Source: Abditibacteriaceae bacterium (GTDB lineage Bacteria > Armatimonadota > Abditibacteriia > Abditibacteriales > Abditibacteriaceae). Taken from it: a stretch of DNA of 22,381 bases. The notes under the pieces were generated by a model. That model saw only the letters and a list, made by a program, of their open reading frames with translations, searched no databases and was not told where the DNA came from. Below are positions 31 through 6,522 of this stretch, piece after piece. Location: contig JANMKN010000230.1 in the NCBI GenBank assembly GCA_031372065.1, forward strand, positions 1 to 22,381, written 5' to 3'. The translations under genes and the position numbers were made by a program. The first letter of the stretch is position 1. Each line of letters begins with the position of its first letter.

Positions 31-171
31 CTTCCCGTTAATCCCACCTCTAAGGTGGTTTAACAAAGAAAAAGAGTCAGAATTTCCGGTTCAGCGCGTA
101 AAAATTGCCTAAAAAACGCTAAAGCGCGCTGACAATCGGACTTTAGACTATCCGCGATGCGGACAAAACAC

Positions 172-324
172 ATGAAACACGACCTGCGCCCTTTCAACAG
201 CACTATGACTTACGCCACCGGCACGTTTTGCCGCACGGCGATGTGTTGCTGCTGTTGTCTGAGGCCGACGGCGTGGTTGATGAAAATGCAAAATAGCGCA
301 TTCGCTGCTTTTTTCATCGCTTGA
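172..324 (+). CDS. Polycysteine leader peptide (putative cysteine attenuator uORF 1)
   Basis: Manual translation: MKHDLRPFNSTMTYATGTFCRTAMCCCCCLRPTAWLMKMQNSAFAAFFIA*. Five consecutive Cys codons at 244-258, one more Cys at 229-231, TGA at 322-324. Other in-frame ATGs lie at 157, 205 and 241, so the true start is uncertain. Sits upstream of the sulfate transporter. Confidence 0.8.
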   Translation: MKHDLRPFNSTMTYATGTFCRTAMCCCCCLRPTAWLMKMQNSAFAAFFIA

Positions 325-369
325 TCCTCCCACGTCCGTCGGCTGTTCCGGCGGATTTCGCTGTTTCTT
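264..369 (+). promoter_or_regulatory. Attenuator 1: competing antiterminator and terminator-like hairpin
   Basis: GCCGACGGCGTGG (264-276) pairs with CCACG-T-CCGTCGGC (330-343): 13 bp with one bulge. The competing hairpin TCCGTCGG-ctgtt-CCGGCGGA (335-355) is followed by TTTCGCTGTTTCTT, an imperfect U-tract. Both structures use 336-342. Confidence 0.7.
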
Positions 370-515
370 GACTTCCAAGAACGCAACGCAAACTCCTTCC
401 GCCCTTTATTACCTACCCCAGACCTGTGATTTAACGCCCGGTGCGAAATCACGACAGACCCGGCGATGAAAATTATCGCCCGCACGATTCAGATTTAAAT
501 TTCAACGGAGACACC

Positions 516-2943: not shown

Positions 2944-3897
2944 ATGTCCGAACGAATTTTGACTCTACAACCGCAGGTGACGACGCTCGAAGGCGCGGTA
3001 GCCAAAGGCGACGCTTCCGCCTCGAAAAAGACGGCGCAGCCTGTCGCGACGCGGCGCGCGACGACCGAGCCGTGGCCCGTAAAACTGCTGCTGATTCTCA
3101 CCGCTGTGCTGTTTTTACTGGTCTTTTTGGTGGCGCCGCTGTCGCTGGTGTTCATCGAAGCCTTTAAAAAGGGTTTCGAGGTTTACAAAGCCTCTTTGGT
3201 TGACCCCGATGCGCTTTCGGCCATCAAATTGACGCTGCTCACGGCGGCGATTGCGGTGCCGCTCAACACGCTTTTTGGCCTTGCCGCTTCGTGGTTGATC
3301 GCGAACTTTCATTTCCGGGGCAAAAGCGTGCTGCTGACGCTGATTGACCTGCCTTTCGCGGTTTCACCGGTTATTTCGGGCCTGATTTTCATCTTGCTTT
3401 TCGGTGCGCGGGGCACGTTCGGGCCGTGGCTGGAAGCGCACGATTGGAAAATTGTTTTCGCCACGCCGGGCATTATCTTGGCGACGACGTTTGTCACTTT
3501 CCCGTTTGTGGCGCGCGAACTCATTTCGTTTATGCAGGCGCGCGGCACCGAAGAAGAAGAAGCGGCGGTGGTTTTGGGCGCCTCGTTTTGGCAAACCTTT
3601 CGCCGCGTGACGCTGCCCGCTATCAAGTGGCCGCTGCTTTACGGCGTGATTTTGTGCAACGCCCGCGCGATGGGCGAATTCGGCGCGGTTTCCGTCGTTT
3701 CGGGCCACATTCGCGGCGAAACCAACACCATTCCGCTGCAAGTGGAAATTCTTTATAACGAATACAATTTCACCGCTTCTTTCGCCGTCGCCTCGATTTT
3801 AGCGGGCTTGGCGATGGTGACGCTGGTGATTAAAGCCTTCGTGGAGCGCCAAGCGCATCGCGTGCTGGCCGAAGGCGCCAAACAGGAATTAACATGA
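2944..3897 (+). CDS. cysW: Sulfate ABC transporter permease CysW
   Basis: [60 protein letters not shown]. Confidence 0.95.
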
Positions 3898-4979
3898 CCA
3901 TTCACGTTGAAAATATCAGCAAACATTACGGCGCCTTTCGCGCCTTGGAAAATGTCAGTCTTGATGTGCCGCCCGGCGAACTGACGGCGTTGTTGGGGCC
4001 GTCGGGCAGCGGCAAAACCACGTTGCTGCGTATTATCGCCGGTTTGGAGTCGCCCGATAGCGGCAGAATTCGCTACGAAGGCAGCGATGTCACTAAAAGC
4101 GCCGTGCGCGAGCGTAACGTTGGCTTTGTCTTTCAACATTACGCGCTGTTCGGTCACATGACGATTTTCGAAAACATCGCTTTTGGCCTGCGTGTGCGCA
4201 AATGGAAAAAGGACGCCATCGAAAGCCGCGTGACGGAATTGCTCAAGCTGATTCAACTCGAAGGTTTGGGCAAGCGTTTTCCCTCGCAGTTATCGGGCGG
4301 ACAGCGACAGCGTGTCGCTTTGGCCCGCGCTTTGGCGCCGCAACCGCAGATTTTGCTGCTCGACGAGCCATTTGGCGCGCTGGATGCCAAAGTGCGACAA
4401 GAATTGCGCCGCTGGCTGCGCCGTTTGCACGATGAAATCGGCATGACCAGCCTGTTTGTGACGCACGATCAGGAAGAAGCCTTTGAAGTGGCTGACCGCG
4501 TAGTCGTGATGAACAAAGGCCACATCGAACAAAATGGCGCGCCGGATGATGTTTTCGCGCAACCAGCCAACGCGTTCGTCATGGACTTTTTGGGCAACGT
4601 GAATGTGTTTCATGGCCGCGCCGCAGCGGGCCAAGTGCAAGCGGGCGGGTTTGCCCTGCCCTTTCCCGAATATTCCCACAGCGACGCGCAACCCGCGACG
4701 GCTTATGTGCGCCCGCATGAAATGGATATTGATCGCAAGCCGCACGGCGAACAATCGGTTTCAGCCCGCATCGCGCGCATCAATCGCAGCGGGCCTTTGG
4801 TGAAGTTGTCTTTGGTGGGCGCCGACGATGAAACGCAGGTCAACGTCGAAATTGACCACGCGCGCGACCGCGAATTGAATCTGAATGTGGATGACACCGT
4901 TTATCTCTATCCGCATCATGTCCGCGTTTTTCTGCCGGAAAACAACGTGAAAAGCGCCACCCAAGTCGCTGCCAAATGA
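3894..4979 (+). CDS. cysA: Sulfate ABC transporter ATP-binding protein CysA
   Basis: Walker [23 protein letters not shown] signature, [24 protein letters not shown]-terminal TOBE-like region. ATGA overlap with the cysW stop. Confidence 0.95.
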
Positions 4980-4987
4980 GAATTTCC

Positions 4988-5086
4988 ATGACCACGCTTG
5001 CTTTTTCGCCCTTTAATCGCTGTCTGTGTTGCATCTGTTTGTGTTTGTGGCCGACCACAAGGCAAAGGAGTTCGCACAGGTTTTAA
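4988..5086 (+). CDS. Cys-rich leader peptide (putative cysteine attenuator uORF 2)
   Basis: ATG 4988, 8 nt after the cysA stop: MTTLAFSPFNRCLCCICLCLWPTTRQRSSHRF*. Five Cys in 8 codons (5021-5044), TAA at 5084-5086. Confidence 0.75.
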   Translation: MTTLAFSPFNRCLCCICLCLWPTTRQRSSHRF

Positions 5087-5127
5087 CCCACATCAAAGAC
5101 CTGTTAGAACATTGATTTCTTTCCTGC

Positions 5128-5169
5128 GCGCCGGCTGCTTTACAATAAACAGCAACCGGCGCCTTTTTT
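5128..5169 (+). terminator. Intrinsic terminator between uORF2 and the porin (attenuator 2)
   Basis: GCGCCGGCTGCT (5128-5139) / AGCAACCGGCGC (5151-5162), 11 of 12 pairs, then C-TTTTTT. The 5' arm can instead pair with GTGGCCGAC (5047-5055). Confidence 0.75.
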
Positions 5170-5234
5170 GTGCCGGACAGCTTACTTTCGCCGCAAAAAC
5201 CTAAAACTTGTCGTATCAGAAATCAGGAGAAACC

Positions 5235-6467
5235 ATGCACCATCAAGATCGCCCCGCGACACGGGGCCTCACAACTTTAGCCGCGCTGGGCCTTTTTAAC
5301 GTAGCATTACCCGCGCAGGCACAACAAAGCGAAGTCGAGGCCTTGCGCGCCATCATCGGTGACCTTCAGGCCCGTTTGAGCAAACTCGAAGAAGCACAAA
5401 GCAGCGCCGCTGCTGCCGCCAAAACCGCACCCAAAACGGTCACCGCCAAAAGTGCGCCCATCACGGTTTCTGGCAATTTCCAGATTCATGGCTTGGCCTA
5501 TTTCAATCAAAAAGGGCCGGGCGCGAAAGTGCCGGACACTTTCCGCCTGCGCCGCAGCGACATTCGCCTGACCGCGCAAATCACGCCCAAAATTGTGGGC
5601 ACGGTGCAACTTGACCCGGCGAAAAGCCTCAACTTGAACGCGTCGGGCACCGCCATCAACCAAACCGGCAACGTATTACAAGAGTTGACTTTGATTTATC
5701 AGTTGCAAAAGTCGGCCAAAGGCGCCAATTACATAGATGTCGGCCAGTTCAAGATTCCCATCGGTTACGAAGGCGACCTTTTGGCATCATCAGCCATTCC
5801 CAATGTTGAACGCGCCCTGCTCTTCACGCAGCGCGATCCCTTTGGCGGCGGCTATGGCGACATCCGCGAAACCGGCGCGCGATTGCGCGGCACTTCGGGC
5901 GAATTCGGTTATGATCTGGGCATTTTCAACGGCTTCGGCGACCGCCAAAACGCTTTGGCGACCAGCGATCAAAAAGCGGTCATCGGGCGCTTGATTTACA
6001 CCCCGAAATCGCTGAAAAATGCCCTGCAACTCGGCCTCAGCGGCGGCACCGGCAGTCCCGGCAACACCAGCCGCGACATCGTAAACGCTTTTGCGGTTTA
6101 CAAGAAAAGCAAACTGACGCTGCAATCGGAATATCTCGACGGCAAAACGCAAGGTTTGTTGGGCGCGCCGCCTGCCGCCACAACGCGTGACGTGAAAGGC
6201 TATTACGGCCACGTCGGTTATTTCTTCGCGCCGAAACTGGAAGGTATCGCGCGCTACGATTATTTCAACACAGACAAAAACGTCGCGAACGCCGACGCGA
6301 CCGACATCACGTTGGGCGCCAATTATTACATCAAGGGCAACAACGCCAAAATCCAGTTGAATCTGGTGCGTCGCGACGGCAATCCTGCCGCCAAAACCGG
6401 CAACGGCGCTGGCGATTTGCGCAATGACCGCTACGAACTGCGCACCAATTTCCAAGTCGCCTTTTAA
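5235..6467 (+). CDS. OprO/OprP-like anion-selective outer-membrane porin, probably for sulfate
   Basis: Signal peptide ending AQA, short N-terminal coiled coil, FRLRR, GQFKIPIGYE and VER motifs of porin O/P, amphipathic beta strands, C-terminal Phe. AGGAG precedes ATG 5235. Confidence 0.8.
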   Translation: MHHQDRPATRGLTTLAALGLFNVALPAQAQQSEVEALRAIIGDLQARLSKLEEAQSSAAAAAKTAPKTVTAKSAPITVSGNFQIHGLAYFNQKGPGAKVPDTFRLRRSDIRLTAQITPKIVGTVQLDPAKSLNLNASGTAINQTGNVLQELTLIYQLQKSAKGANYIDVGQFKIPIGYEGDLLASSAIPNVERALLFTQRDPFGGGYGDIRETGARLRGTSGEFGYDLGIFNGFGDRQNALATSDQKAVIGRLIYTPKSLKNALQLGLSGGTGSPGNTSRDIVNAFAVYKKSKLTLQSEYLDGKTQGLLGAPPAATTRDVKGYYGHVGYFFAPKLEGIARYDYFNTDKNVANADATDITLGANYYIKGNNAKIQLNLVRRDGNPAAKTGNGAGDLRNDRYELRTNFQVAF

Positions 6468-6480
6468 TCGTTTCGATCTG

Positions 6481-6522
6481 CAACGCCCGCTGCTTCAGGG
6501 AAGCAGCGGGCGTTGTGTTTTT
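6481..6522 (+). terminator. Intrinsic terminator ending the sulfate operon
   Basis: Perfect 16-bp stem CAACGCCCGCTGCTTC-agg-GAAGCAGCGGGCGTTG followed by TGTTTTT. Confidence 0.88.

Follow-up and report, generated by a model that had tools for sequence, protein, structure and literature searches.

How can a porin gene be served by the transcript of a sulfate transporter operon when an intrinsic terminator and a short cysteine-rich open reading frame (ORF) stand between the two? This question is raised by the locus described here, which lies within a 22,381-nucleotide stretch of DNA from an Abditibacteriaceae bacterium (contig JANMKN010000230.1; the whole stretch is hereafter called the window). 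The initial annotation proposed that a second, operon-internal cysteine attenuator is located in front of the porin gene. This proposal was supported by conservation in a sister genome, by recognition of the element with a covariance model (R2) of related leaders and by the geometry shared with those leaders. We consider it fairly likely that the segment 4976-5169 is a leader-peptide transcription attenuator, in which readthrough from cysA into the porin gene takes place only upon ribosome stalling at Cys codons.

Organization of the sulfate-uptake operon

The genome from which the window was taken (6.1 Mb) is designated G000, and G001, G002 and G003 are genomes of the same genus. A promoter-like site, TTGACA-N18-TACAAT, is located at positions 1-30, the start of the window. 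Directly 3' of its -10 box is a small hairpin, CCCACC-tctaa-GGTGG (44-59), which may form the 5'-end stem of the operon transcript; hairpins unlike it in sequence occupy the equivalent position in G001 and G002. The first leader (leader 1; 157-372, forward strand) includes a Cys-rich ORF with MCCCCC, starting at 157 or 172 and ending at 324, antiterminator strands at 263-276 and 330-344, and a terminator hairpin at 334-356, followed by a weak U-rich stretch. Both leader 1 and the TTGACA-N18-TACAAT site are kept in G000, G001 and G002. An antiterminator pair that is A-U in G000 and G002 is G-C in G001, and the leader 1 ORFs of all three genomes end at a conserved TTGA just 5' of the 3' strand.

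The sulfate-binding-protein gene ends at 1613 and is followed by cysT (2035-2931), cysW (2944-3897) and cysA, the gene for the ATPase of the sulfate ABC transporter (3894-4979, forward strand; Pfam ABC_tran, CysA_C_terminal and TOBE_3), of which the stop codon is TGA at 4977-4979. Between cysA and the porin gene lies the second element, composed of leader ORF, antiterminator and terminator (4976-5169), and then a 65-nt spacer (5170-5234, forward strand), in which the porin Shine-Dalgarno sequence AGGAG is found at 5225-5229. The porin (5235-6467, forward strand; Pfam Porin_O_P, E 5e-20) belongs to the phosphate-selective O/P family, and an 18-bp terminator (6479-6517) is located 3' of its gene.

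Leader ORF and cysteine codons of the second element

The 32-residue ORF with CLCCICLC that had been annotated downstream of cysA was found as described: an ATG at 4988, 8 nt past the cysA stop, opens the 32-codon frame MTTLAFSPFNRCLCCICLCLWPTTRQRSSHRF. An in-frame ATG at 4976, missed by the initial annotation, shares the sequence ATGA with the cysA stop and lengthens the frame to 36 codons, and from either start leader ORF 2 ends at TAA 5084-5086 (forward strand). The cluster C-L-C-C-I-C-L-C (5021-5044, forward strand) has five TGY codons. The short ORF of a leader-peptide attenuator is thus present, with five Cys in eight codons and with the porin linked to sulfate-uptake genes. No convincing Shine-Dalgarno sequence was found before either start, ATG 4976 or ATG 4988, and for this reason we infer a start by termination-reinitiation after cysA; translation of the leader probably begins by coupling to that of cysA. 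The leader ATG of G001 is located 30 nt past the cysA stop.

Terminator and antiterminator

The intrinsic terminator (5128-5169, forward strand) is formed by the stem 5128-5139/5151-5162, with 11 pairs and one C.A mismatch, the 11-nt loop 5140-5150, and then C and a U-tract of six T residues (5164-5169). It folds at -19.2 kcal/mol and is conserved in G001, and its position between the ORF and the porin gene was correctly recognized at first. Equally real are the two hairpins annotated upstream: the local hairpin TTGTGG-ccga-CCACAA (5045-5060, forward strand; -7.0 kcal/mol), which competes for the antiterminator strand, and the inner stem 5076-5084/5096-5104, which constitutes the apical hairpin of the antiterminator (5076-5104, forward strand; -8.7 kcal/mol) and contains the leader stop codon.

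The antiterminator had been described as a pairing of 9 nt between 5047-5055 and 5130-5138. The pairing itself was confirmed, but it is one part of a larger three-tier stem that spans 5047-5138. The 5' strand (5047-5073, forward strand) lies entirely within leader ORF 2, and the last part of the 3' strand (5107-5138, forward strand) is the terminator 5' arm. In the first tier, GTGGCCG (5047-5053) pairs with CGGCTGC (5132-5138); in the second, scattered pairs are formed between 5055-5062 and 5123-5130, which begins with CCTG (5123-5126); and in the third, AAAGGAGTTC (5064-5073) pairs with GAAC (5107-5110) and TTCTTT (5117-5122), the apical hairpin being set on top. The 5047-5053/5132-5138 pairing was present in the minimum free energy (MFE) structure of every nascent RNA starting at 5035-5044 and ending before the terminator 3' arm. 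With a ribosome set on each Cys codon in turn, the stretch of nascent RNA reaching from behind the ribosome to where the terminator 5' arm ends was also folded. For a ribosome stalled at Cys 12, 14 or 15, the MFE structure was one long imperfect antiterminator stem of -30.6 kcal/mol, whereas with a stall at Cys 17 or 19 the ribosome itself masks some of the first tier. The 5047-5138 stem is thus the MFE structure of the nascent RNA, and the homologous helix covaries among related leaders, as described below. With a ribosome at the leader stop codon, only the terminator was left to form in the folds. As calculated from the coordinates, a ribosome parked at this codon covers 5069-5097, which is the inner part of the strand only and not 5047-5062, while a ribosome in transit covers the antiterminator 5' strand.

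In the window copy, the terminator fold is more stable than the antiterminator once the terminator 3' arm is present, and the choice between the two folds would therefore be kinetic, as in classical attenuators. A conserved anti-antiterminator (1:2 pairing) was not found in the folds of the window copy and the G001 copy. The window fold shows a possible 5001-5010/5061-5070 pairing, to which nothing in G001 corresponds, and the local hairpin 5045-5060 is the only conserved competitor of the antiterminator. As long as the 3' arm has yet to be made, the default fold of the naked RNA is the antiterminator in both copies. Termination would then need ribosomes on the strand at the right moment, and untranslated RNA would default to readthrough.

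When the antiterminators were folded alone, that of the window copy was the weakest of 17 (-27.5 kcal/mol). Its basal helix carries an A.C mismatch at the 5054/5131 region and further unpaired positions, and non-standard pairs are marked by R2; the window copy is the most decayed of the 17 elements. The corresponding values for leader 1 are -36.4 kcal/mol for the antiterminator and -14.1 kcal/mol for the terminator, which has a broken U-tract. The second antiterminator is thus weaker than the first, as the initial annotation had it, and with a weaker antiterminator and a stronger terminator (-19.2 kcal/mol, U6) the second switch should pass fewer transcripts than leader 1. The porin Shine-Dalgarno sequence (5225-5229) lies outside every predicted structure, 56 nt beyond the terminator.

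Conservation of the second element in sister genomes

Conservation in related genomes had been suggested as a check on the attenuator, and the Cys ORF, the sequence block following it and the terminator were all found to be kept in G001. The order in G001 is cysA, a Cys ORF with NSMCCCSCPWPATRQRSSLAST, a terminator and the porin gene. The block after the Cys run, GTGGCCG[A/G]CCACAAGGCAAAGGAGTTCGC, is identical at 28 of 29 nt between G000 and G001, and because it is nearly identical, the conservation of the two intercistronic copies alone cannot separate constraint on the RNA from constraint on the peptide. The terminator arms are kept in G001, and the terminator folds there at -20.4 kcal/mol with T6. 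Divergence between the two genomes is seen in the apical hairpin, in the terminator loop and in the N-terminal peptide, the N-terminal 11-19 residues of the leader peptide being unrelated. A local hairpin, GTGG-ccgg-CCAC, is found in G001 at the matching position, and so is an apical hairpin of unrelated sequence, which also holds the stop codon. The A at 5054 of the window is G in G001, a change that restores a pair. The G001 antiterminator, with a closing helix of 16 bp and -44.8 kcal/mol, beats the terminator even in the full-length fold. The spacer 5170-5234 is poorly conserved between the window and G001 except for the Shine-Dalgarno region.

Porin homologs were detected in all of the family (Abditibacteriaceae) genomes (27/27), and 33 porin-upstream regions were compared after six duplicate loci had been dropped. 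The cysA gene is located directly upstream of the porin gene in 13 of the 33 regions, each in a different genome, and this adjacency ties the porin to sulfate uptake. Cys ORF and terminator are present in the cysA-porin gap in only two of these 13, G000 and G001. In G002 the porin gene follows cysA directly without the Cys element. Alignment of the G002 spacer with both elements for a remnant was uninformative, so that gain in the G000/G001 line is indistinguishable from loss in G002. The cysT, cysW and cysA matches of G002 (locus L137, contig G002:C8) are split over several frames, which points to frameshifts or assembly errors, and its missing second leader should therefore be read with care. 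G003, in which the best cysA match shows 47% identity and thus is not a close one, says nothing either way. A metagenome scan with CysA (80 loci) gave a best identity of 62% and no genus-level relatives, and hence no further intercistronic copies; the contigs of three DNA runs over 4800-5400 carried no variant letters.

A family-wide class of cysteine leaders

Elements related to the two intercistronic copies were collected by pattern search and then with a first covariance model, R1, which gave 22 matches at E up to 0.01 in 14 of the 27 family genomes. In the convincing members, a terminator comes after the coding sequence of a peptide like MCCCLCPWPAA or MCCRDCMWPAT. Every checked match except the two intercistronic copies precedes a first gene and is not located between cistrons. 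As judged by Pfam, the 15 downstream ORFs code for four sulfate-binding proteins, two sulfatases, eight N_methyl/DUF1559 proteins and one peptidase M16, the last of which stands behind a weak partial R1 match that we doubt. From this set of downstream genes, the class marks genes for sulfur scavenging. The N_methyl/DUF1559 (prepilin-like) genes with Cys leaders are those of loci L192, L201, L202, L203, L196, L198, L188 and L190/L209. In one genome (G012) a DUF1559 gene heads a cluster of genes for a luciferase-like monooxygenase, an ABC ATPase, an NMT1-type binding protein and a second monooxygenase, a gene content that suggests an ssu-like cluster for alkanesulfonate utilization; there are thus hints that some DUF1559 proteins belong to sulfur scavenging. 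The lengths and C-termini of the leader ORFs vary freely across the class.

Alignment A2 and the model R2 derived from it include 15 5'-leader elements from 12 genomes, with both intercistronic copies excluded. R2 recognized the window element (5024-5170) with 35.8 bits (E 2.5e-8 over 31 kb, 4.9e-6 over the entire 6.1 Mb of G000) and the G001 intercistronic copy with 66.2 bits. When 151 genomes of the phylum were searched with R2 under stricter filters, seven were matched, all of them members of the family (G000 and six of its 13 relatives), and the 137 genomes from outside the family gave no match (0/137). The class is probably restricted to Abditibacteriaceae. No match was found in Rfam for 4976-5235 at E up to 1.

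Among the 15 leaders, 88.6% of the cells of the basal antiterminator helix are paired, compared with 36-50% for slid partners, and 9 of 14 pairs have changed on both sides. The observed value was reached by none of 500 shuffles on four measures and by 3/500 on a fifth, and with the two intercistronic copies plus seven leaders (87.3% of cells paired, with two-sided changes in 6 of 14 pairs) again by 0/500 on four measures, but since the aligned sequences are related, these shuffle figures are not probabilities and the slid controls are the fairer guide. The geometry is also shared. In 16 of 17 rows the pairing strand begins 7 nt downstream of the first base of the last Cys codon; for the remaining row (G019) a different frame had been picked by the script. 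The stop codon always follows the start of the 5' strand and precedes the 3' strand by 8-54 nt; relative to the end of the 5' strand, its position ranges from 4 nt before to 46 nt after. With a spacing of 7 nt, the stop codon 22 nt past the strand end and 38 nt before the 3' strand, and T6, the window element conforms to the class. In all 17 strand-to-strand segments folded alone, the strand after the Cys run pairs with the terminator 5' arm. Each intercistronic copy is closer in sequence to the DUF1559-type leaders found in other genera (GGCCGGCCACAG ... CTGTGCGCCGGCT) than to leader 1 of the operon in which it lies.

By these comparisons of sequence, the second element is homologous to a family-wide class of 5' leaders with a covarying antiterminator helix. 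The arrangement is not due to chance as judged on the same grounds, since it recurs in G001 and was found by a model built without it. Cysteine is, we infer, the amino acid to which the second element responds.

Searches of the window's own genome gave the following picture. The pattern GGCCGRC...GYCGGCT had 19 matches, three of them with at least five TGY triplets in one frame just upstream; two of the three are the second element and leader 1, and the third, on contig C329, was unmatched by both RNA models. One extra exact match of a shorter pattern was rejected as a chance occurrence, because it lies within a recombinase-like ORF of 555 codons. The six-frame listing of Cys clusters, with 309 matches, was too noisy, and a terminator filter reduced it to 15, among which only the second element looked real; leader 1 was missed by this filter because of its broken U-tract. 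In genome contigs, exact GGCCGNCCACAAGGCAAAGGAG was found in five records, one of which is the G001 element, and the other four, with titles of unrelated taxa, were taken for chance.

Upstream regions of the porin genes

No promoter-like site was detected in 4980-5234 at the scan threshold, and the porin gene therefore appears to depend on readthrough. Most porin homologs of the family (loci L015-L042, for instance L041 = G000:C382) carry three to four direct CTTAA boxes upstream, about 11 nt apart, and a conserved CCTG[C/A]AAGATGGG motif about 60-90 nt before the start. Both are present downstream of cysA and of a histidine kinase gene alike, and both are absent from the porin genes of the window and G001. 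The CTTAA boxes may be response-regulator boxes, and the CCTG[C/A]AAGATGGG motif may belong to the 5'-UTR.

Alternative explanations

The decay of the window copy raises the prospect that it is a duplicate which has lost its sensing function, and which acts as a fixed, leaky terminator, blind to cysteine here, to hold the porin mRNA at a constant fraction of the transporter mRNA. An antiterminator that is the weakest of 17 (-27.5 kcal/mol) facing a strong terminator (-19.2 kcal/mol, U6), an R2 score of 35.8 bits against 66.2 for the G001 copy, a poor start-codon context and the cysA-porin junction of G002, a member of the same genus without the element, are all in line with such decay. We regard it as unlikely, because the five in-frame Cys codons, the 7-nt spacing and the position of the stop codon are all intact, a ribosome at the first three Cys codons still leaves the antiterminator as the nascent fold, and the ATGA overlap with cysA has the look of a feature adapted to ribosome loading.

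Still simpler would be a plain end terminator of the sbp-cysTWA operon, with the porin transcribed from its own promoter and the Cys-rich ORF irrelevant. This is very improbable: the terminator is strong and most other porin homologs of the family do have their own upstream region with CTTAA boxes, but here only 65 nt without such boxes separate the U-tract from the porin ATG, nothing promoter-like lies in 4980-5234 at the scan threshold, and the conserved Cys ORF, its homology to 15 leaders and the antiterminator would be left unexplained. That the ORF instead encodes a functional small Cys-rich protein, a metal-binding or membrane peptide rather than a sensor, is hardly credible. The Cys cluster and the residues W-P-T/A-T-R-Q-R-S-S are common to G000 and G001, as such a protein would have it, yet the 11-19 residues at the N-terminus are unrelated between the two genomes, ORF lengths and C-termini vary freely in the class, and what recurs class-wide is limited to the Cys run and the residues specified by the pairing strand, a strand that covaries with its RNA partner.

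Proposed mechanism

For the leader-peptide attenuator, the following sequence of events is proposed. After finishing cysA, a ribosome would begin again on the leader, either within the ATGA overlap (4976) or at ATG 4988. When Cys-tRNA is plentiful, it would run through 5047-5083 and unzip the antiterminator 5' strand while RNA polymerase is making 5128-5169; the terminator would then form and transcription would end at about 5169. When Cys-tRNA is scarce, the ribosome would be held up at Cys codon 12, 14 or 15, with its A site at 5021-5030 and its leading edge no further than about 5043. The segment 5047-5138 would then fold as the antiterminator (about -30 kcal/mol), and with the terminator 5' arm sequestered, transcription would read through into the porin gene. 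As these transcripts have already passed leader 1, the porin would need two cysteine-dependent readthrough steps and the transporter genes one.

More tentatively, it is possible that an attenuator has moved between cistrons and is loaded via the ATGA overlap, so that cysteine is tested twice and porin induction becomes both steeper and later, all within a family-wide 'ribulon' that includes DUF1559 pseudopilin-like proteins. An intercistronic site can work only when the gene before it passes translation on to the leader, and a duplicated leader, if functional, can set different induction thresholds within one operon. Two leads for experiments follow: an O/P-type porin beside cysA could be a sulfur-starvation channel, and the large DUF1559 family, of which the function is unassigned, could include members switched on by cysteine shortage.

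Comparison with known attenuation systems

Ribosome-mediated attenuation is textbook knowledge for trp, his, leu, thr, phe and ilv, and trpL, hisL, leuL, thrL and pheL of Escherichia coli and Salmonella are the classical leader-peptide transcription attenuators. Like them, the second element combines an intrinsic terminator with a short ORF in which codons for the sensed amino acid are clustered; its antiterminator recruits the terminator 5' arm, and the fold adopted is predicted to depend on where the ribosome stands. Unlike the classical attenuators, it would sense cysteine and sits between cistrons instead of at the 5' end; the whole 5' strand of its antiterminator is within the ORF; and no conserved anti-antiterminator was found in it, so that untranslated RNA is predicted to default to readthrough.

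A full-text literature search, with subscription papers outside its reach, found no terminator-based cysteine leader in print. In a genome-wide survey of premature terminators, as far as a term search of its text shows, cysteine occurs in the reference list only (PMC2965389). A close parallel is the mycobacterial 'Cys ribulon' of Canestrari et al. (bioRxiv 10.1101/834739), described in the parts of that paper concerned with polycysteine leaderless sORFs at the transcript 5' end; its Discussion also outlines the classical leader-peptide attenuators. In the case studied there, stalled ribosomes free a downstream Shine-Dalgarno sequence, which is translational attenuation. Tiny Cys-run ORFs before cysteine and sulfur genes at several loci, with the ribosome as a regulon-wide sensor of cysteine, are common to that system, as there described, and the class presented here. 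The ORF of the second element differs from those leaderless sORFs in that it follows cysA inside the operon and has a canonical terminator, with the porin Shine-Dalgarno sequence outside the switch. Poly-Cys leader ORFs were also predicted in Actinobacteria by Seliverstov et al. (2005; PMC1262725), for which, according to the relevant passages, no terminators were found. What would be new here, as far as the sequence goes, is a terminator-based cysteine leader with covariation support, in a little-studied lineage and between cistrons.

The initial annotation considered two serial attenuators in one operon to be unusual. Serial attenuators for the same signal do have precedent: according to the account of the Bacillus subtilis pyr operon in PMC7430163, three attenuation regions before pyrR, pyrP and pyrB are read by PyrR with UMP/UTP. 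There, as in the window operon, same-signal terminator/antiterminator switches are located in the leader and between cistrons of one operon, but in the pyr switches as described an RNA-binding protein takes the place of the translating ribosome as the reader, and there is no sensor ORF. The Salmonella mgtCBR leader carries two short ORFs, each anticipated, in the portion of PMC3641672 that deals with them, to control RNA structures and transcription into the coding region. Both mgtCBR ORFs, as presented there, are in one 5' leader and respond to different signals, whereas the two switches of the window operon are 4.8 kb apart, with four genes between them, and have the same amino acid in common.

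A repeat array upstream of cysT

An array of 21-nt repeats occupies 1620-2010, between the sulfate-binding-protein gene and cysT. It comprises about 18 copies, of which about five run one way (1620-1730) and about 13 are reverse complement (1737-2010), so that its arms form imperfect inverted repeats of up to 113 nt. An ORF within the array (1740-2033) is probably not a gene. At the position of the array, G001 carries a second binding-protein gene and a different, GC-rich inverted repeat.
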